This document shows, piece by piece, positions 4,745 to 17,140 of a stretch of DNA of 64,000 nt. The notes under the pieces are model-generated. The model was given only the letters and a program-made list of their open reading frames with translations. It made no database searches and had not been told where the DNA came from. The DNA comes from Halarcobacter sp. Its GTDB lineage: Bacteria; Campylobacterota; Campylobacteria; Campylobacterales; Arcobacteraceae. The translations under genes and the position numbers were made by a program. The first letter of the stretch is position 1, and each line of letters opens with the position of its first letter. The stretch spans positions 3,823-67,822 of the forward strand of contig JBFHGG010000003.1 in the NCBI GenBank assembly GCA_041583235.1. Direction: 5' to 3'.

Positions 4745-5932
4745 ATGTTAGTACTCGTCTTAAATGCTGGAAGTTCATCTTTAAAATATCAATTAATGAA
4801 TCCTGAAACTGCTGAAGTTAAAGCAACAGGGATTTGTGAAAGAATTGGAATTGATGGAAGATTAGTTCATGAAGCAAAAGGTCATAAAGTAAAAAAAGAT
4901 CTTGCGATGCCTACACATAAAGAAGCAATTGAAATTGTTTTAAACTTTTTAACAAATGGTGAAGATAAAGTTATTGACTCAATAGATGAAATCAAAGCTA
5001 TAGGACATAGAGTTGTTCACGGGGGAGAATATTTTAATCACTCAGTTATTATTGATGATGATGTAATAGAAAAAATACAATCACTTATTCCCCTTGCCCC
5101 TTTACATAATCCTGCTCATATAATTGGTATAAAAATCTGTAAAGAAATAATGCCAAATACTCCAAATGTTGCTGTATTTGATACAGCATTCCATCAAACA
5201 ATGCCAGCAAGTTCATTTATGTATGCAGTTCCTTATGAAGATTACAAAGACCATAAAGTTAGAAAATATGGCTTTCATGGAACTAGCCACTATTATGTTT
5301 CAAATGAAGCAAAAAAAATGCTAAATAAAGAAGATTCAAAAGTTATTGTTTGTCACTTAGGAAATGGTTCTTCTATGTGTGCAGTTAGAGATGGTAAATC
5401 AATTGATACATCAATGGGATTAAGTCCTTTAGAAGGTTTAATTATGGGAACAAGATCTGGAGATTTAGATCCTGCTGTTTTGAACTATTTAATGGAAAAG
5501 AAAAATATGTCTTCTGAAGAGATGATAAGTTACTTGAATAAAAAATCTGGACTTCTTGGAGTATCTGGAATTTCTTCTGATTTAAGAGAGATTATTGAAG
5601 CTGCTCAAAATGGTGATGAAAGAGCGCAAACAGCAATAGATATGAAATGTAATAGAATTAAAAAATATATCTGTTCATATGCAGGAGTACTTGAAGGAGT
5701 TGATGCAATTTGTTTCACAGCAGGAATTGGTGAAAATGCAGATATAGTTAGAGAAAAAGTATGTAGCGGATTGGAATTTTTAGGCCTTGAACTTGATATA
5801 AAGAAGAATAAAACTAGAAGTTTTGAAAATAGAGAAATAAATAAAGATACTTCAAAAGTGAAGATTTATATAATTCCTACAAATGAAGAGTATGTAATTG
5901 CTCATGATACTTATCAATTAGTAAAAGCCTAA
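4745..5932 (+). CDS. ackA: Acetate kinase (copy 1)
   Basis: LNAGSSSLK, HRVVHGG, LAPLHNP, YGFHGTSH, HLGNGSS, GTRSGD and PTNEE motifs. Confidence 0.95.
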   Translation: MLVLVLNAGSSSLKYQLMNPETAEVKATGICERIGIDGRLVHEAKGHKVKKDLAMPTHKEAIEIVLNFLTNGEDKVIDSIDEIKAIGHRVVHGGEYFNHSVIIDDDVIEKIQSLIPLAPLHNPAHIIGIKICKEIMPNTPNVAVFDTAFHQTMPASSFMYAVPYEDYKDHKVRKYGFHGTSHYYVSNEAKKMLNKEDSKVIVCHLGNGSSMCAVRDGKSIDTSMGLSPLEGLIMGTRSGDLDPAVLNYLMEKKNMSSEEMISYLNKKSGLLGVSGISSDLREIIEAAQNGDERAQTAIDMKCNRIKKYICSYAGVLEGVDAICFTAGIGENADIVREKVCSGLEFLGLELDIKKNKTRSFENREINKDTSKVKIYIIPTNEEYVIAHDTYQLVKA

Positions 5933-6112
5933 AGCTTTTACTAATTATTATCTTACTTAGCTAAAAAAATATACAAAATCTATACTTATTTATACTATAT
6001 GTACTACTTTTATACACACCTTATTAATATGAACAAAACTTATTCCCAAATGCTATTATAATGCTACGTTTGAATATTATAATTTATTGAATTAACAATA
6101 AAGGAAACTTGA

Positions 6113-7105
6113 ATGGGTTTAATTGAAAGTATTAAAGAAAATGCTAGAAAAGAGCTAAAAACTATCGTCCTGCCGGAGGCTGATGATGAAAGAGTTTTAA
6201 AAGCTACTCAAATCGTTTTAGAAGAAAAAACTGCAAATGTAGTTTTAATTGGAAATGCAGAAAAAATCAATTCTGATGCTGCTGCTTGTGGCGCAAACAT
6301 AGAGGGTGCTACTATTATTGACCCCTTGAGTTTTGATGGAATTGAGAAGTATATTGATGCACTAGTTGAACTTAGAAAATCAAAAGGTCTTTCAAAAGAT
6401 GAGGCTGCAAAAATCATGACTACAGAACCTAGATTCTTTGGTTGTATGATGGTAAGACTTGGTGAGGCTGATGGATTAGTTGCAGGTTCAAATTCTCCAA
6501 CTGCAGATGTTTTAAGAGCTGCAATTCAAGTTATTAAAACTGCACCAGGAATAAATACTGTTTCTTCTACTTTTATTATGGAAACAAGTGATGGAAAATT
6601 TGGAGATAATGGCTTAATTTTATTTGCAGATTGTGCTGTTAATCCAGAACCAAATGCTGAACAATTAGCAGATATTGCATCTGCAACTGCTGCAACGGCT
6701 AAATCTGTTGTAGGATTAGAACCAAGAGTTGCAATGTTGTCATTTTCAACAAAAGGAAGTGCTAAGCATCCACTTGTAGATAAAGTACAATTTGCATGTG
6801 ATATATTAGAAGAGAGAGAAGTTGATTTTGCATTTGACGGGGAGATGCAAGCAGATGCTGCTATTGTAGAAGCTGTTGGTGCATCAAAAGCACCAGGTTC
6901 TAAAGTAGCAGGATGTGCTAATGTTTTAGTTTTCCCTGATTTACAATCAGGAAATATAGGATATAAATTAGTACAAAGATTTGCAGGTGCTTCAGCACAT
7001 GGACCTATTGTACAAGGATTAAATAAGCCTGTAAATGACCTTTCTAGAGGTTGTTCAATTGAAGATATTTCAAACTTAGTTGCAATTACTGCAACTCAAG
7101 CATAA
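6113..7105 (+). CDS. pta: Phosphate acetyltransferase, short (catalytic-domain-only) type
   Basis: IVLPE, FADCAVNP, MLSFSTKGS, DGEMQADAA, FPDLQSGNIGYK and NDLSRG motifs. Confidence 0.95.
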   Translation: MGLIESIKENARKELKTIVLPEADDERVLKATQIVLEEKTANVVLIGNAEKINSDAAACGANIEGATIIDPLSFDGIEKYIDALVELRKSKGLSKDEAAKIMTTEPRFFGCMMVRLGEADGLVAGSNSPTADVLRAAIQVIKTAPGINTVSSTFIMETSDGKFGDNGLILFADCAVNPEPNAEQLADIASATAATAKSVVGLEPRVAMLSFSTKGSAKHPLVDKVQFACDILEEREVDFAFDGEMQADAAIVEAVGASKAPGSKVAGCANVLVFPDLQSGNIGYKLVQRFAGASAHGPIVQGLNKPVNDLSRGCSIEDISNLVAITATQA

Positions 7106-7141
7106 TTACAAAATCAAATTTAAAGAAGAGGGAAAAGACAT

Positions 7142-8341
7142 ATGTTAGTATTTATTTTAAACGCAGGTAGTTCGTCACTAAAGTACCAATTAATGAATCC
7201 AATTAGTAAAGAAGTTTTAGCAGTAGGACTTTGTGAAAGAATTGGAATTGATGGTGTAATAAAACATGAATTTGGTGATGATCAAAAATTAAAACTTGAC
7301 GTTTCAATGCCAACACACAAAGAAGCAATTGAATTAGTATTAAAAACTTTAACTGAAGGTGAAGGTAAAGTTATAAATTCTATTGATGATATTGATGCTA
7401 TAGGACATAGAGCTGTTCATGGGGGAGAAGAGTTTGCTTCTTCTGTAATGGTAACAGATGCAGTTATTAACAAAATGAAGGAACTTATTCCTTTAGCTCC
7501 TTTACATAACCCTGCAAATATTATGGGTATGGAAATTTGTGCTGAATTAATGCCAGGTAAACCAAATGTTGCAGTATTTGATACTGCATTTCATCAAACT
7601 ATGCCTGATTATGCTTATATGTATCCACTTCCATATGAACAATATACTAATAATGGTGTTAGAAAATATGGTTTCCATGGTACGTCTCATTATTTTGTTT
7701 CAAGCGAAGCAACTAAAATGTTAGATAAAAAACATAATACAAGAATCATAGTTTGTCACTTAGGAAATGGCTCTTCAGTTTCTGCTATCTTTGATGGTAA
7801 ATGTATTGACACTTCTATGGGACTTACTCCTGTTCAAGGTTTAATGATGGGAACAAGATCTGGAGATATTGGAGCAGGTGCAATTCAATATATGATGGAA
7901 TCTGAGGGTCTTAGTATTAAAGAGATGCTTGATATGTTAAATAAAAAATCAGGAATTGTTGGAATTTCTGGGAAATCATCAGATTTAAGAGAAGTTCTTG
8001 AAGGAATGGATGCAGGTGATGATAGATGTAGATTAGCAGTTGATATGATTGCTTATATTATCAAGAAATATGTTGGTTCATATGCAGCAGCACTTGATGG
8101 TGTAGATGCATTATGTTTCACAGGTGGAATTGGTGAAAATGCAGCTCTTATTAGAGAAAAAGTTTGTTCAGGTTTAGATTATATGGGATTAAATATTGAC
8201 CCAACTAAAAATAATAAAAGATCTAGTAATGCAAGAGATATTTCTACAAATGGTTCAAATGGTAGAATTTTTGTTATTCCAACAAATGAAGAGTATGTAA
8301 TTGCAAATGATACATATAAAATTGTTCAAGGTCTAGCATAA
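7142..8341 (+). CDS. ackA: Acetate kinase (copy 2)
   Basis: Same motif set as copy 1, with HRAVHGG. Confidence 0.93.
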   Translation: MLVFILNAGSSSLKYQLMNPISKEVLAVGLCERIGIDGVIKHEFGDDQKLKLDVSMPTHKEAIELVLKTLTEGEGKVINSIDDIDAIGHRAVHGGEEFASSVMVTDAVINKMKELIPLAPLHNPANIMGMEICAELMPGKPNVAVFDTAFHQTMPDYAYMYPLPYEQYTNNGVRKYGFHGTSHYFVSSEATKMLDKKHNTRIIVCHLGNGSSVSAIFDGKCIDTSMGLTPVQGLMMGTRSGDIGAGAIQYMMESEGLSIKEMLDMLNKKSGIVGISGKSSDLREVLEGMDAGDDRCRLAVDMIAYIIKKYVGSYAAALDGVDALCFTGGIGENAALIREKVCSGLDYMGLNIDPTKNNKRSSNARDISTNGSNGRIFVIPTNEEYVIANDTYKIVQGLA

Positions 8342-11744: not shown

Positions 11745-11880
11745 ATTATATTCCTTTTAAATAGTCCCCATTTAAAAGGGACCTTTGTATTTTACAACTA
11801 CTTTATTAACAATTGGTATGAAACCTACTTAAAAGTAGCAAAATTCTAAAGAGAACAATTAATTGTTCTTTTCTATAAAT
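11745..11880 (-). repeat. Three-hairpin conserved element, copy X (5' of aroQ)
   Basis: About 70% identical by manual alignment to 13503-13629, with compensatory changes in the stems. Confidence 0.75.
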
Positions 11881-11941: not shown

Positions 11942-12967
11942 ATGAAAAATTATATTTTATTGAATGAAAACGCAATTTATTATGAATGTGGCTTTTCTTG
12001 TGATAATGTTGTATTCTTAAAGTTAGGTAAGGAGTCTTTTTTTATTACTGATGCTAGATATACTATTGAAGCACAAGAGTATGCGAAAAACTCAATTGTA
12101 ATTCAAAGTTCTGATTTTATAAAAGATACACAAGAATTATTAAAAAAATCAAAAATCAAAAAAATCACCTTTGATCCAAATGATTTTAAATTAGCTTTTT
12201 ATCAAAAACTAACAAATGATTTAAAAATAAATTTTATTCCAAAAGAAAACTTTTCAAAATTAAAAAGAATCATTAAAAGTGATGAAGAAGTTGAACTTCT
12301 AAAAAAAGCTGCAATAATTGGAAAAGCAGGATTTAAAGAACTTGCTAAATTTATAAGAAAAAATGGCTTTAATCAAAGTGAAAACTTTCTTCATTTTAAA
12401 GCAATAGAAAAAATGAGTCAAATAGGTAAATATGATTTAAGTTTTGACCCTATTGTTGCTATTAATGAAAATGCTGCAAAACCTCATGCCCTACCCACAA
12501 ATAAAAAATTAAAATTAAATAGTTTGATATTGGTTGATGCTGGAGTTAAATATAAAAGGTATTGTTCGGATAGAACTTGTACTTCAAACACAAATTTTGA
12601 GAAATTTACTTTTAAAAGAGAACAAAGATTTAAGAATAAAAAACATCAAAAGATTTATGATTTAGTTTACAAAGCTCAATTAAACGCAATAAGTAAAGCA
12701 AAAGTTGGAATGAAAGCTTCTAAAATTGATAAACTTACACGTGAAGTAATTGAAAAAGCCGGATATGGAGATTTTTTTGTACATAGTACAGGACATGGAG
12801 TGGGATTAGATATTCATGAGTTTCCAAATATAAATTCAAAGTCTGATGTTATAATAGAAGATAATATGGTCTTTACTATAGAACCAGGAATCTATCTTCC
12901 AAATGAATTTGGAGTTAGAATTGAAGATACAGTAGTAATGAAAAACGGCAAAGCCGTAATACTTTAA
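11942..12967 (+). CDS. Xaa-Pro aminopeptidase, M24 family
   Basis: AAKPH, LVDAG, YCSDRT, HSTGHGVGLDIHE, TIEPGIY and GVRIED motifs. Confidence 0.92.
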   Translation: MKNYILLNENAIYYECGFSCDNVVFLKLGKESFFITDARYTIEAQEYAKNSIVIQSSDFIKDTQELLKKSKIKKITFDPNDFKLAFYQKLTNDLKINFIPKENFSKLKRIIKSDEEVELLKKAAIIGKAGFKELAKFIRKNGFNQSENFLHFKAIEKMSQIGKYDLSFDPIVAINENAAKPHALPTNKKLKLNSLILVDAGVKYKRYCSDRTCTSNTNFEKFTFKREQRFKNKKHQKIYDLVYKAQLNAISKAKVGMKASKIDKLTREVIEKAGYGDFFVHSTGHGVGLDIHEFPNINSKSDVIIEDNMVFTIEPGIYLPNEFGVRIEDTVVMKNGKAVIL

Positions 12968-13031
12968 AAAATCAAAAAATTTGAAAATTTAACTTGACTT
13001 ATTTAATAAGTTTTATATTTTCAGGAGAAAT

Positions 13032-13514
13032 ATGAAAAAAAAATTAGCAGACAATTTAACACTTTTTTATAGTTCAAATTTTCCAAAAGTTTTCAATAAA
13101 TATTCAAATAAAAAACACTCTGTAACTATTGGTATTGGGGGAAATATTGGGAATATGAAAAAAACATTTGATAAATTACTCTTATGTTTAAAAGAGGATT
13201 CAAGATTTACTCTAATTAAAACTTCTGCACTATTAAAAAATCCTCCCTTTGGATTCTTAGAACAAAATGATTTTTTAAATGGTATAATTACCTTTAAAAC
13301 AAATCTTTGTCCTAATGCTCTTTTAAAAGCAATGCAAAGATATGAAAATAAATTCGGAAGAAAGCGATCCTTTCAAGATGCGCCTAGAACCTTAGATATT
13401 GATATAATATTTTTTGATAATAAAAAAATTAATACAAAAAATTTAATCATCCCTCATAAAGATTGGGCAAATAGAGAGTCTGTTATTATTCCTTTAAAAC
13501 TTATTTATAAATAG
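13032..13514 (+). CDS. folK: 2-amino-4-hydroxy-6-hydroxymethyldihydropteridine diphosphokinase
   Basis: IGIGGNIG, DFLNG, PRTLDIDII and IPH motifs. Confidence 0.93.
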   Translation: MKKKLADNLTLFYSSNFPKVFNKYSNKKHSVTIGIGGNIGNMKKTFDKLLLCLKEDSRFTLIKTSALLKNPPFGFLEQNDFLNGIITFKTNLCPNALLKAMQRYENKFGRKRSFQDAPRTLDIDIIFFDNKKINTKNLIIPHKDWANRESVIIPLKLIYK

Positions 13515-13629
13515 AACAACTCGTTGTTCACTTTAGGGTTTGCTTCTTTAAGTGGAATTTATTTCCACTGCTAAAAGAAGTCATAAAATATATGGTTCCT
13601 TTTAAAAAGGAACTTTTTTAAGGATAAAA
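13503..13629 (+). repeat. Three-hairpin conserved element, copy Y (5' of mnmA1)
   Basis: Stems at 13514-13529, 13543-13580 and 13594-13614; homologous to copy X. Confidence 0.75.
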
Positions 13630-14730
13630 ATGAAAAAAAAGGTAGTTGTTGGAATGTCTGGTGGTGTTGATTCATCAGTTACTGCACTATTATTAAAACA
13701 ACAAGGATATGAAGTAGTAGGCTTGTTTATGCGAAATTGGGAATATGGAATCGAAGGTAGCCAATGTCCTAATCGTATAGAGTTTGAAGATGCTAAAAAA
13801 GTTGGTGAACTAATAGGAATTGAAGTAAAAGGTAAAGACTTTGTAGAAGAGTACAGAACAAAAGTATTTGATGTATTTTTAGAAGGTTTAAAAAAAGGAC
13901 TTACTCCAAATCCAGATATACTGTGTAATCGTGAGATTAAATTCAATGTATTTTTAAATGAAGCAAAAAAAATGGGTGCAGATATGATTGCAACTGGACA
14001 TTATGCAAAAATAGCTAAACACAATGACCACTATGTACTAGATACTCCAAAAGATTCTTCAAAAGACCAAAGTTATTTTTTACATGCATTATCAAGTGAA
14101 CAATTATCTCATGCGATGTTTCCTCTTGGTGATTTAACTAAAAAAGAAGTAAGAGAAATAGCAAGAGAACATAATCTTCCTGTAAGTGATAAAAAGGATA
14201 GTACTGGAATTTGTTTTATAGGTAACCAAAGATTTGATGAGTTTATCACCCAACATCTAAAAGCAGTTCCTGGAGATATTATAGATGAGAATGGAAAAGT
14301 TATAGGAAAACACAAAGGTCTTATTTGTTACACATTAGGTCAAAGAAAAGGTATTGGTCTTGGTGGTATTAAAGAAACTGAATCAGCAGGTCATATTCAT
14401 AAACCATGGTATGCTGCAAAAAAAGATATAGAAAATAATACTTTAACAGTTGTTCAAGATACTATACATCCTTTACTTATGAATCAAAATGTTGAAGCTA
14501 GCCATATGCACTGGGTACTTGAAACCCCTCCTAAAATTGGAGATAAACTAGTGGCACAAGTTAGATATCGTCAACAAAAACAAGCTTGTACAGTTTGTGA
14601 AACTTTTGATGATGGGAGAGTAATAGTAAAATTTGATAAACCTCAAAGAGCAGTAACTTTAGGTCAAAGCCTTGTTTTATATGATGGAGATTATTGTTTA
14701 GGTGGGGGTTTTATAAGTAATTACTATTAA
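13630..14730 (+). CDS. mnmA: tRNA 2-thiouridine(34) synthase, D-type (DxxC+C)
   Basis: SGGVDS, MRNWE, PNPDILCN, ATGHYA, KDQSYFL and DSTGICFIG motifs. Confidence 0.94.
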   Translation: MKKKVVVGMSGGVDSSVTALLLKQQGYEVVGLFMRNWEYGIEGSQCPNRIEFEDAKKVGELIGIEVKGKDFVEEYRTKVFDVFLEGLKKGLTPNPDILCNREIKFNVFLNEAKKMGADMIATGHYAKIAKHNDHYVLDTPKDSSKDQSYFLHALSSEQLSHAMFPLGDLTKKEVREIAREHNLPVSDKKDSTGICFIGNQRFDEFITQHLKAVPGDIIDENGKVIGKHKGLICYTLGQRKGIGLGGIKETESAGHIHKPWYAAKKDIENNTLTVVQDTIHPLLMNQNVEASHMHWVLETPPKIGDKLVAQVRYRQQKQACTVCETFDDGRVIVKFDKPQRAVTLGQSLVLYDGDYCLGGGFISNYY

Positions 14731-14769
14731 ACAATCATTAGCTTTACTTTAGCAAAATTAGTTTTTAAA

Positions 14770-14778
14770 TGCTACAAT
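14770..14778 (+). promoter_or_regulatory. Possible extended -10 (TGcTACAAT) for mnmA2
   Basis: Sequence match only; no TSS data. Confidence 0.4.
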
Positions 14779-14807
14779 TGCGCTTCAAATTAATCTTTGC
14801 AGAAATA

Positions 14808-14988
14808 CTTTTTTAAAGCTATGCAAAGATATTAAAATAAATTCGGAAGAAAGCGATCCTTTCAAGATACGCCTAGAACCTTGAATATTGATATAATATT
14901 TTTTTAATTATAAAGAATTAATAGAAATAATTTAATTATTCCTTTTTAAAATTGGGCTAGTAGAGAATCAGTGATTATTCCTTTAAAA
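14808..14988 (+). pseudogene. folK: Decayed duplicate of the folK 3' end
   Basis: Near-identical to about 13320-13499 (atgcaaagatat.aaaataaattcggaagaaagcgatcctttcaagat...), with GAA>TAA at 14833-14835, a second stop and indels. Confidence 0.9.
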
Positions 14989-14998
14989 AGGATGAATT

Positions 14999-16033
14999 AT
15001 GAGCAAAAAAGTAATGGTTGGTATGAGTGGAGGAATTGATTCTTCAGTAACTGCTTATATGCTACAAAAAGATGGATATGAAGTTGAAGGGGTATATTTA
15101 AAACTTCATAATAGAACAGATGGTTATCATGAAAAAAATTTAGAACATATAAAAGATGTAGCAAAATTCTTGAATATCAAATATCATATTTTGGATTTAG
15201 CAGATAAATTTACAACTGAAATATATGACTATTTTGTTGATTCTTATTTAGAAGGAACAACTCCAAACCCATGTGTGAAATGTAATAAACAGATAAAATT
15301 TGGTGCTATGCTTGATTTTGCGAAAGAGAAAGGGGCTTCATTTTTAGCAACAGGACATTATGCTAAAACTGATGGTGAGTTTTTCTATGAAGCAGATGAT
15401 AAAACAAAAGACCAATCTTATTTCTTATCTCAAGTAAATAAAGAAGCTTTACCTTTTATGATGTTTCCACTAAGTACCTATAATAAAGAAGATATCATTA
15501 AATTTGCTAAAGATTTAGATGTAGCTTATGAAAGAATTACTGAAAAAAATGAATCACAAGAAATTTGTTTTGTTGAAACTGTATATACAGATGTTGTAAA
15601 AAAACATGCAACTATTGATGTTCCTGGAAAAGTATTAGACGAAAATGGAAATATTGTAGGAGAGCATAAAGGTTATGCACATTATACAATTGGTAAAAGA
15701 AGAGGTTTTACAGTTCATGGAGCTCATGAACCTCATTTTGTAACAAAATTAAATGCAAAAGACAATACAATTGTTGTTGGAAAAAAAGCTGCTTTAGAGA
15801 TAAATGAAGTAGAAGTTGAGAACTTAAATATGTTTATAACAGAGCCTTCTTTTTCATGTACAGTTAAGTTAAGATATAGATCTGTTTCAATACCTTGTAG
15901 AGTTAAAATTGAAGGGAATAAAGCTAAAATAACTTTAGAAGAACCCGCTTTTGGAGTTGCATCTGGGCAACTTGCAGTTTTTTATAATAATCAAAAAGTA
16001 CTAGGTAGTGCTTGGATAACAAATACTAAGTAG
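14999..16033 (+). CDS. mnmA: tRNA 2-thiouridine(34) synthase, C-type (CxxC+C)
   Basis: SGGIDS, PNPCVKCN, ATGHYA, KDQSYFL and ESQEICF motifs. Confidence 0.94.
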   Translation: MSKKVMVGMSGGIDSSVTAYMLQKDGYEVEGVYLKLHNRTDGYHEKNLEHIKDVAKFLNIKYHILDLADKFTTEIYDYFVDSYLEGTTPNPCVKCNKQIKFGAMLDFAKEKGASFLATGHYAKTDGEFFYEADDKTKDQSYFLSQVNKEALPFMMFPLSTYNKEDIIKFAKDLDVAYERITEKNESQEICFVETVYTDVVKKHATIDVPGKVLDENGNIVGEHKGYAHYTIGKRRGFTVHGAHEPHFVTKLNAKDNTIVVGKKAALEINEVEVENLNMFITEPSFSCTVKLRYRSVSIPCRVKIEGNKAKITLEEPAFGVASGQLAVFYNNQKVLGSAWITNTK

Positions 16034-16037
16034 GCTC

Positions 16038-16066
16038 TTAAACTAGGCTCTTAGACCCTAGTTTAA
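16038..16066 (+). terminator. Hairpin after mnmA2
   Basis: ttaaactagg / cctagtttaa, a 10-bp stem. Confidence 0.5.
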
Positions 16067-16207
16067 AAGTCCATAAAAAATATATTTATTAGATATTTTA
16101 TTTTTATTTAAAAAGACAAAAATCAAAAATATCAAATAACTTAAAATTGATTAAGTAGTTTTTAGATAAAATCGCAACAATACATACAATCACACAAGGA
16201 TAATCTG

Positions 16208-17140
16208 ATGGCGAAATTTAAGCTTTTTAGCGGTACCGCAAACCCTGAATTTGCTAAAAAAGTTGGTAAATATTTGAATATGCAAATAGGTGGAGCAACT
16301 ATACAAAAATTTAGTGACGGTGAAATATCTGTTCAAATTCATGAAAGTGTTAGAGGACAAGATGTATTTATTGTTCAACCAACATGTGCCCCAACAAATG
16401 ATCACTTAATGGAATTACTTATAATGGTAGATGCACTTAAAAGATCAAGTGCAAAATCTATTTCTGCAGTTATTCCATATTTTGGATATGCAAGACAAGA
16501 TAGAAAAGCAGCTCCTAGAGTTCCAATTACTGCAAAATTAGTTGCTGATATGTTAGAATCATCTGGAATTGATAGAGTCATAACAATAGACTTACATGCC
16601 GCACAAATTCAAGGTTTCTTTAATATACCTGTAGATAATTTATATGGTTCTGTATTATTTGTAGATTTCTTAAAAAGAAAAAATCTAAAAAATCCAATTA
16701 TTGCAAGTCCTGATATTGGTGGAGTTGCACGTGCAAGATCATATGCTGACAAATTAGGTTATGATTTAGTTATTGTTGATAAAAGAAGAGAAAAAGCAAA
16801 TGTTGCTGAAGTAATGAATATCATTGGTGAAGTAAAAGGTAAAGATGTAATTTTAGTAGATGATATGGTTGATACAGCTGGAACTTTAGTTAAAGCTGCT
16901 GAAGCATTAAAAAGTAGAGGAGCTACATCTGTTATGGCCTGTTGTACACATGGAGTACTAAGTGGTCCTGCTTTTGAAAGACTTAATAATGGAACATTAG
17001 ATGAACTTGTTATCACAGATACAATTCCATTACATGGAACTAGTGATAAAATAACTATCTTAACAGGTACTAAAATTATTGCAGAAACTATTAGAAGAAT
17101 CACAAACAACGAATCTGTGAACTCTATCTTTATAGATTAA
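16208..17140 (+). CDS. prs: Ribose-phosphate pyrophosphokinase
   Basis: FSDGE, PYFGYARQDRK, DLHA, SPDIGG and DDMVDTAGT motifs. Confidence 0.97.
   Translation: MAKFKLFSGTANPEFAKKVGKYLNMQIGGATIQKFSDGEISVQIHESVRGQDVFIVQPTCAPTNDHLMELLIMVDALKRSSAKSISAVIPYFGYARQDRKAAPRVPITAKLVADMLESSGIDRVITIDLHAAQIQGFFNIPVDNLYGSVLFVDFLKRKNLKNPIIASPDIGGVARARSYADKLGYDLVIVDKRREKANVAEVMNIIGEVKGKDVILVDDMVDTAGTLVKAAEALKSRGATSVMACCTHGVLSGPAFERLNNGTLDELVITDTIPLHGTSDKITILTGTKIIAETIRRITNNESVNSIFID

Follow-up and report, generated by a model that had tools for sequence, protein, structure and literature searches.

The DNA analysed here (the window) is a 64,000-nucleotide stretch of the genome of Halarcobacter sp., a marine bacterium of the Arcobacteraceae (assembly GCA_041583235.1, contig JBFHGG010000003.1), and it carries, side by side, two genes for the tRNA U34 2-thiolase MnmA, here called mnmA1 and mnmA2. 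These two co-directional open reading frames (ORFs) lie exactly where an initial annotation of this DNA had placed them, between folK and prs (Table 1). Judged from their sequences, both genes are intact and encode MnmA proteins of different classes. No further full MnmA gene is present in the 2.93-Mb assembly, which is 95.9% complete. The surroundings of the pair include a decayed second copy of the 3′ part of folK (psi-folK), two copies of a candidate promoter box and a repeat that folds into three hairpins.

Table 1. Features of the mnmA locus, with rough dN/dS values (ratio of nonsynonymous to synonymous substitution rates) for the five genes compared.
Feature	Position	Strand	Description	dN/dS
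mnmA1	13630-14730	+	D-type MnmA (C-DxxC-C), 366 amino acids, xenolog; from ORF, profile matches and alignment to 2DER	0.097
mnmA2	14999-16033	+	Resident C-type MnmA; CxxC-C variant lacking CC; 344 amino acids	0.133
psi-folK	14731-14992	+	Decayed duplicate of folK codons ~72-158; one frameshift, at least five in-frame stops	
Candidate promoter P_A	13272-13288	+	folK-internal 17-mer TTTTTAAATGGTATAAT; extended -10 TGGTATAAT at 13280-13288	
Candidate promoter P_B	14762-14778	+	TTTTTAAATGcTAcAAT; P_A duplicate in psi-folK, ~220 nt upstream of the mnmA2 ATG	
Three-hairpin repeat ('leader')	13503-13629	+	Predicted fold -30 kcal/mol, z = -3.1	
folK (HPPK)	13032-13514	+	Intact; codons ~72-160 form the left copy of the direct repeat around mnmA1	0.238
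prs	16208-17140	+	Conserved neighbour downstream of mnmA2	0.145
17-nt inverted repeat	16035-16069	+	Directly 3′ of the mnmA2 stop	
pepP				0.178

MnmA enzymes have been divided into a D-type, defined as C-DxxC-C, and a C-type, defined as CC-CxxC-C (Shigi et al., 2020, PMC7025502), and a C-type variant that lacks the CC motif has been described in Campylobacter and Helicobacter (PMC7025502). MnmA1 contains the motifs SGGVDSS, PNPDILCN and DSTGICF, together with one upstream cysteine (GSQC), and MnmA2 contains SGGIDSS, PNPCVKCN and ESQEICF. There is no cysteine in the region of MnmA2 where C-type enzymes carry CC; with its CxxC and third cysteine it therefore belongs to the Campylobacter/Helicobacter variant. 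Both proteins score far above the curated cut-offs of the NCBIfam MnmA equivalog NF001138 (435.9 bits for MnmA1 and 375.7 for MnmA2, cut-off 284) and of TIGR00420 (413 and 335, cut-off 237), and each contains all three expected domains, namely the PP-loop HUP domain (PF03054), the PRC-barrel (PF20259) and the C-terminal beta-barrel (PF20258). Identity between the two is only 33%. Over its full length, MnmA1 aligns with Escherichia coli MnmA (Protein Data Bank (PDB) entry 2DER; 364 bits), with which it shares the PP-loop, the first cysteine, the three domains and residues D99, C102 and C199; MnmA2 aligns with 212 bits and has a cysteine at the position of D99. In their motifs, profile scores and 2DER alignments, and in the clades of the tree described below, the two proteins bear out the initial assignment of MnmA1 to the D-type and MnmA2 to the C-type, and the agreement goes far beyond chance. 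Unlike E. coli mnmA, mnmA1 adjoins a second MnmA gene of the other class.

The PP-loop, D/CxxC and third-cysteine motifs are invariant in 62 orthologs of MnmA1 and 64 orthologs of MnmA2. Both enzymes would be expected to adenylate and then thiolate U34 of tRNA-Glu, tRNA-Gln and tRNA-Lys. Relatives exist in which one or the other type is the only MnmA, which lends indirect support to 2-thiouridine (s2U34) activity of both. One copy could instead have taken on a new function, acting on another nucleoside, position or substrate, and be an MnmA in name only, as PP-loop thiolase paralogs have diverged in this manner in other families. That either protein has left the MnmA reaction is nevertheless very improbable, given full-length scores far above the equivalog cut-off, three domains, invariant motifs and service as the only MnmA elsewhere.

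The pair is not peculiar to this genome, and about half of the family holds it. Among 154 Arcobacteraceae genomes, each at least 90% complete, an mnmA1 ortholog (82-95% identity) is found in 83, and about 77 contain both types, a count reached after seven apparent D-only cases had been checked. Halarcobacter, Malaciobacter and Poseidonibacter are among the named holders of the D-type, as are Aliarcobacter cryaerophilus, vitoriensis and vandammei. Across an evenly drawn set of 401 genomes that covers 64 genera of the phylum, the D-type was restricted to Arcobacteraceae and most Campylobacterota had the C-type only; in another, earlier sample, two small families of the order (f7 and f9) had only a D-type, at ~62% identity.

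Taken singly, each gene is ordinary, both are routinely annotated as MnmA, and the existence of two copies in A. butzleri has been mentioned in print. In that Tn5 study, a 1038-bp 'mnmA_1' and its upstream neighbour 'mnmA' were counted as two copies, and the 'mnmA_1' insertion mutant was viable and formed less biofilm (PMC12811638). Its length and position suggest that 'mnmA_1' is the C-type copy. Our literature search found no paper that describes the two types together in a single genome. One D-type ortholog stems from the transcriptome assembly of a protist (EukProt, Cantina marsupialis), weak evidence for its transcription in a relative; the counterpart search with the C-type gave no such transcriptome match among its top 120.

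Some members of the family depart from the common arrangement. In two genomes of another genus, the most divergent D-type of the family (82-83% identity; L106/L107, on G140:C27 and G141:C60) is the only MnmA; it lies away from folK and prs, adjoins a 935-amino-acid ORF, and may mark an earlier landing site or a separate transfer. A genome without SufS carries, beside its C-type, a second MnmA-like gene that is 50% identical to MnmA1 (G117:C151:401-1447), which may have been acquired separately or may stem from contamination of a small contig. At G025:C1:492001-493011 there is a second C-type paralog that is very divergent, with 42% identity, a long branch and one in-frame TAG. In the same genome, the main mnmA lies within a 549-amino-acid open frame (L099, G025:C1:723800-730900), and a frame of 526 amino acids occurs in G178; these may represent an N-terminal extension or a fusion.

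The two genes have different origins. In a tree of 71 sequences, the C-types of Campylobacterales form one clade that is split from the D-types with 100% support. MnmA1 falls into a clade of 24 members (100% support) together with the D-only Campylobacterales families, and this clade is nested among E. coli-like D-types. Its best matches outside the phylum are 52-54% identical, for example a Wenzhouxiangella protein. A foreign origin of mnmA1, raised in the initial annotation, is supported by this tree, by the insertion scar and by the empty sites in relatives, both described next. mnmA2, in turn, is the vertically inherited C-type of Campylobacterota.

The insertion scar is the spacer between the two genes. 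Its 268 nt are wholly occupied by the folK 3′ duplicate, and the direct repeats on the two sides of mnmA1 (13263-13327/14753-14817 and 13321-13499/14810-14988) are 75-85% identical at the DNA level. psi-folK runs straight into the ribosome-binding site of mnmA2, exactly as the end of the true folK does at empty sites. These sites, with the order pepP-folK-mnmA2-prs, are found in congeners and sister genera (L080-L086, L089 and L090), where folK lies 10-95 nt from mnmA2; mnmA2 is the single mnmA copy in L080-L086, and pepP-folK stands upstream of mnmA in all relatives compared. Homologous folK remnants occur in ~20 relatives, and most of them are closest to the remnants of other species and not to the folK of their own genome, indicating a single old event. 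Other relatives have lost the remnant by deletion, and there only 1-30 nt separate mnmA1 from mnmA2.

On this evidence, mnmA1 was placed between folK and mnmA, in an ancestor within Arcobacteraceae, through a recombination event in which the ~260 nt at the 3′ end of folK were duplicated. Direct repeats of a folK segment on either side of an insert are the pattern expected from Campbell-type integration, and a circle carrying a 3′ fragment of folK and mnmA1 could have integrated in this way, or another duplicative route may have been taken. Recombination between the folK repeats would then excise mnmA1 without a scar. A simple tandem duplication followed by divergence was rejected, as the MnmA proteins are 33% identical and belong to different deep clades, whereas the folK repeats are 75-85% identical. 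Gene conversion of the remnant in the window by its own folK likewise found no support, the remnant being similarly close (84-86%) to functional folK 3′ ends of several species, and most remnants being closest to those of other species.

The duplicated folK segment includes a candidate promoter box, so that a copy of the same putative element stands ahead of each mnmA gene. The original 17-mer, P_A, is shared without change by 26 of 27 functional folK genes, those at empty sites included, and it exceeds in length every other near-invariant nucleotide run found among 31 species in pepP, folK, mnmA1, mnmA2 and prs. Of the five proteins, FolK is the least conserved. The invariance of P_A at synonymous sites argues for a function at the DNA level, and we read the box as the probable native promoter of the mnmA that follows. 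Its copy in psi-folK, P_B, was also flagged in a promoter scan as a promoter-like match with TG. Its TGNTAYAAT motif is kept in 18 of the 20 remnants of at least 150 nt, and ten remnants are trimmed to 'TA|TGNTATAAT', with the box beginning two bases after the mnmA1 stop. Retention of the box in trimmed remnants suggests that the remnant survives because it carries the candidate promoter. The case for a promoter rests solely on this retention and on invariance across species; on these grounds, the locus would be a clean worked example of a gene insertion that duplicated, and then preserved, an intragenic candidate promoter.

A second motif resembling an extended -10, TGATATAAT, occurs at 13400-13408 and 14889-14897, within the conserved LDIDII codons of folK and the remnant. 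It is not invariant between species at the nucleotide level and is probably coincidental. The putative 5′ untranslated region of mnmA2 (14786-15025) has a predicted fold no more stable than that of shuffled sequence (z = 0.03), and an inverted repeat over the mnmA2 Shine-Dalgarno sequence was therefore not used.

These observations bear on the regulation of the pair. The initial annotation had credited mnmA1 with a leader element of its own and mnmA2 with a separate promoter, and had taken the two as signs of condition-dependent switching. The 'leader' is a dispersed repeat and not a sensor specific to mnmA1: it is ~120 nt long and recurs in at least 12 dispersed copies in the genome at 70-90% identity, one of them before aroQ. 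Ahead of mnmA1 it is present in some relatives, is represented by its last hairpin only in others, and is absent in many, where the spacer measures 0-21 nt. A specific riboswitch before mnmA1 was ruled out by this copy number and patchy presence, and an Rfam search of 12900-16300 at E ≤ 1 returned no family for the 'leader' or for the mnmA1-mnmA2 spacer. The last hairpin (13594-13614), followed by a T-run, is terminator-like and ends directly before the mnmA1 Shine-Dalgarno sequence, so the repeat could dampen read-through from P_A in this strain. The supposed separate promoter of mnmA2 turned out to lie in the folK duplicate and to be a copy of the same -10 box that is found upstream of mnmA1. 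Where the remnant is gone, spacers of 1-30 nt leave no room for a separate promoter and imply co-transcription. A shared box and co-transcription are a poor fit to a conserved design for separate regulation, and nothing in the sequence indicates differential regulation; the switching proposal, though plausible, is not supported by these features.

Both genes are under strong purifying selection in most descendants, and neither is decaying. The dN/dS values in Table 1 are medians of pairwise NG86 (Nei-Gojobori) estimates among 31 species; those of mnmA1 and mnmA2, at comparable dS of 0.78 and 1.0, are the lowest of the five genes. Together with the invariant motifs, they speak against a dead copy. 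Losses have occurred all the same. In the folK+mnmA2 tree, genomes without the D-type are nested among D-type holders, including L085 as sister to L045 with 99% support; well-supported branches force at least three changes in D-type presence, and parsimony gives six. The C-type, for its part, has been deleted in G021/L060 and L035, reduced to a C-terminal remnant in G166 and L027, displaced in G165 and G172, and split by an insertion sequence (IS) with an IS21-like transposase and helper in G034.

In this last case, an Aliarcobacter-like complete genome (L095, G034:C1:1468200-1476100), an insert of ~2.6 kb at ~4850-7440 interrupts mnmA2 next to an intact D-type gene, and its ORFs encode a transposase-like protein of 528 amino acids and an IstB-like helper of 256 amino acids (IS21-like). 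At the P. lekithochrous locus (L110/L018), a porin-like gene of 372 amino acids on the opposite strand takes the place of mnmA2 between mnmA1 and prs. P. lekithochrous was rejected as an example of C-type loss: the gene is missing at L018 and in G172, yet a record of this species carries a C-type ortholog (P0234), a discrepancy that may reflect strain-level variation.

The losses are relevant to two alternative accounts of the pair. In the first, a xenologous displacement has been caught midway, the enzymes are fully redundant, and the pair persists through a benefit of dosage or through slow drift. Either gene can indeed be lost, the two abut in many species and must there be co-expressed, and both stand behind copies of one candidate promoter. 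However, ~77 of the 83 D-type holders keep both genes, dN/dS stays near 0.1 over a dS of ~0.8-1.0, a constraint at least as strong as that on prs, where neutral redundancy should have decayed much faster, and in over 60 orthologs of each gene the catalytic motifs do not vary. The A. butzleri C-type insertion mutant, moreover, has a phenotype despite the presence of a D-type (PMC12811638). We regard full redundancy as unlikely on this evidence. In the second account, the enzymes divide their labour by substrate, each serving another subset of tRNA-Glu, tRNA-Gln and tRNA-Lys or of their isodecoders; at 33% identity, the tRNA-binding surfaces could differ. Lineages with only a C-type (most Campylobacterota) or only a D-type (G021, G165, G166, G172, f7 and f9) must, in contrast, thiolate all three tRNAs with the one enzyme, and losses run in both directions within one genus, making a division by substrate less probable still than redundancy.

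Taken together, the tree, the scar and the losses make one history very probable: a D-type xenolog was inserted beside the resident C-type, the candidate promoter box was duplicated in the process, both genes were kept, and either was lost repeatedly in later lineages. What has maintained the pair in most descendants is a separate matter, and it may turn on how the two enzymes are supplied with sulfur and cofactor.

In E. coli, MnmA receives sulfur through the IscS-TusA-TusBCD-TusE relay. The Halarcobacter sp. genome differs in this respect: searches of the 95.9%-complete assembly gave no match for TusA (PF01206) or TusE/DsrC (PF04358), with controls responding and TusBCD not searched for, and there is no IscS. 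The desulfurases encoded are an epsilon-type NifS, accompanied by NifU, and a SufS-family enzyme, whose gene lies beside sufC, sufD and genes for a SufE/CsdE-like acceptor and SufT. A divergent class-V enzyme is present as the third. Without TusA and TusE, the D-type enzyme would here have to take its sulfur directly from a cysteine desulfurase, either NifS or SufS-SufE. It would thereby resemble the Tus-free D-type systems YrvO-MnmA of Bacillus subtilis and SufS-MnmA of the Plasmodium apicoplast (PMC13066941, PMC10219651), which illustrate the likely mode for MnmA1. In contrast to the dedicated YrvO-MnmA pair, no desulfurase gene adjoins mnmA1, whose surroundings are folK, mnmA2 and prs, and the desulfurase genes lie on other contigs. 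Across the 154 family genomes, SufS accompanies the D-type in 83 of 83 holders and occurs in 25 of 71 non-holders; in one genus of 23 genomes, SufS is present in three, two of which (G140 and G141) have the D-type. This correlation fits either a functional link between SufS and MnmA or a shared package of aerobic lifestyle.

The C-type enzyme of Thermus thermophilus requires an oxygen-sensitive [4Fe-4S] cluster (PMC7025502). MnmA2 shares the CxxC...C arrangement with this enzyme, lacks CC as the Campylobacter/Helicobacter variant does, and groups in the Campylobacterales clade; it probably holds a [4Fe-4S] cluster through CxxC...C, with the cluster presumably supplied by NifS/NifU. Cluster binding has been shown for the Thermus enzyme only, and MnmA2 differs from it as a CC-less variant that coexists with a D-type. 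For the D-type itself, reports conflict. One group has described a required cluster with two cysteines and one aspartate as ligands (PMC8053098, and a 2026 paper cited in PMC13066941), whereas cluster-free D-type enzyme was found to be active (Ogunkola, 2024, as reviewed in PMC11784392). Two PDB entries, 9HLN and 9HLV, apparently represent a D-type MnmA and its D-to-C variant, a sign of continuing work on the question. The premise of two chemistries side by side, with which the initial annotation began, is accordingly a live dispute and not a settled fact.

Our reading of the locus as a whole, to which we assign a probability of roughly 0.55, is that the history outlined above took place, that both genes have been kept, and that the pair has been retained because its two enzymes would depend on different cofactor and sulfur supply lines. 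Two such lines would keep s2U34 robust against failures of iron-sulfur (Fe-S) supply, such as may come with oxygen or iron stress. The part that concerns retention is, taken by itself, the more tentative one, and we hold it at somewhat less than even odds. A still more specific version, in which the C-type runs on a [4Fe-4S] cluster built by NifS/NifU and the D-type on persulfide from the stress-resistant SufS-SufE system, so that aerotolerant Arcobacteraceae maintain accurate decoding when oxygen or a lack of iron disables the Fe-S route, is doubtful in that exact form. A back-up against oxygen or iron stress in general is plausible, and the confinement of the D-type to genomes with a SUF system provides circumstantial support for it.

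Several points weigh against retention by different supply lines. The lines may be less different than supposed, an Fe-S-free D-type being disputed. The association of the D-type with SUF comprises only ~3 independent contrasts and may reflect shared ancestry or lifestyle. Co-transcription in many relatives and homologous -10 boxes do not point to condition-specific control, and the reciprocal losses show that in some lineages either enzyme suffices by itself. Among the supporting data, the dN/dS values are rough, with dS near saturation, and the TGNTAYAAT motif alone is not rarer than expected by chance in the AT-rich window (19 occurrences against 13.4 expected), for which reason the motif by itself was dropped as evidence.

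Retention by different supply lines would have precedents in pairs of enzymes with alternative cofactors, such as the Fe-S fumarases A/B and fumarase C, or the flavin adenine dinucleotide-dependent MnmC and the radical S-adenosylmethionine enzyme YhcC in the xm5s2U pathway (PMC13228596). The likeness lies in two distant solutions for one reaction within one genome, plausibly suited to differing conditions of oxygen or iron. Condition-specific expression or activity is a demonstrated feature of the fumarase and MnmC/YhcC pairs, whereas mnmA1 and mnmA2 are known from sequence and apparently have one type of promoter in common.

It is still disputed whether D-type MnmA operates through a persulfide or needs a labile [4Fe-4S] cluster (PMC8053098 versus PMC11784392), and a family in which D-type and C-type have long been kept together offers a natural genetic system for this question. 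Relatives with a single type exist in nature, among them sister species of which one has the D-type and the other lacks it, and A. butzleri is tractable. Such a system could reveal the contribution of each class in vivo and the desulfurase that feeds a D-type enzyme lacking the Tus relay, as well as whether tRNA thiolation limits aerotolerance in Campylobacterota. If the two enzymes do draw on two supply systems, the pair would provide the first in vivo contrast able to settle the need of the D-type for an Fe-S cluster.

Finally, two further sets of repeats were noted. The inverted repeat behind mnmA2 may mark the end of the transcription unit; that it acts as a terminator is only a guess, and it is not followed by a T-run. 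Further copies of the three-hairpin repeat lie at 11745-11880 (minus strand) in the window and on contigs C71, C88, C36, C9, C67, C18 and others. They often end at the start of a gene, and one copy is found ~100 nt past the sufC end of the suf cluster on C71.

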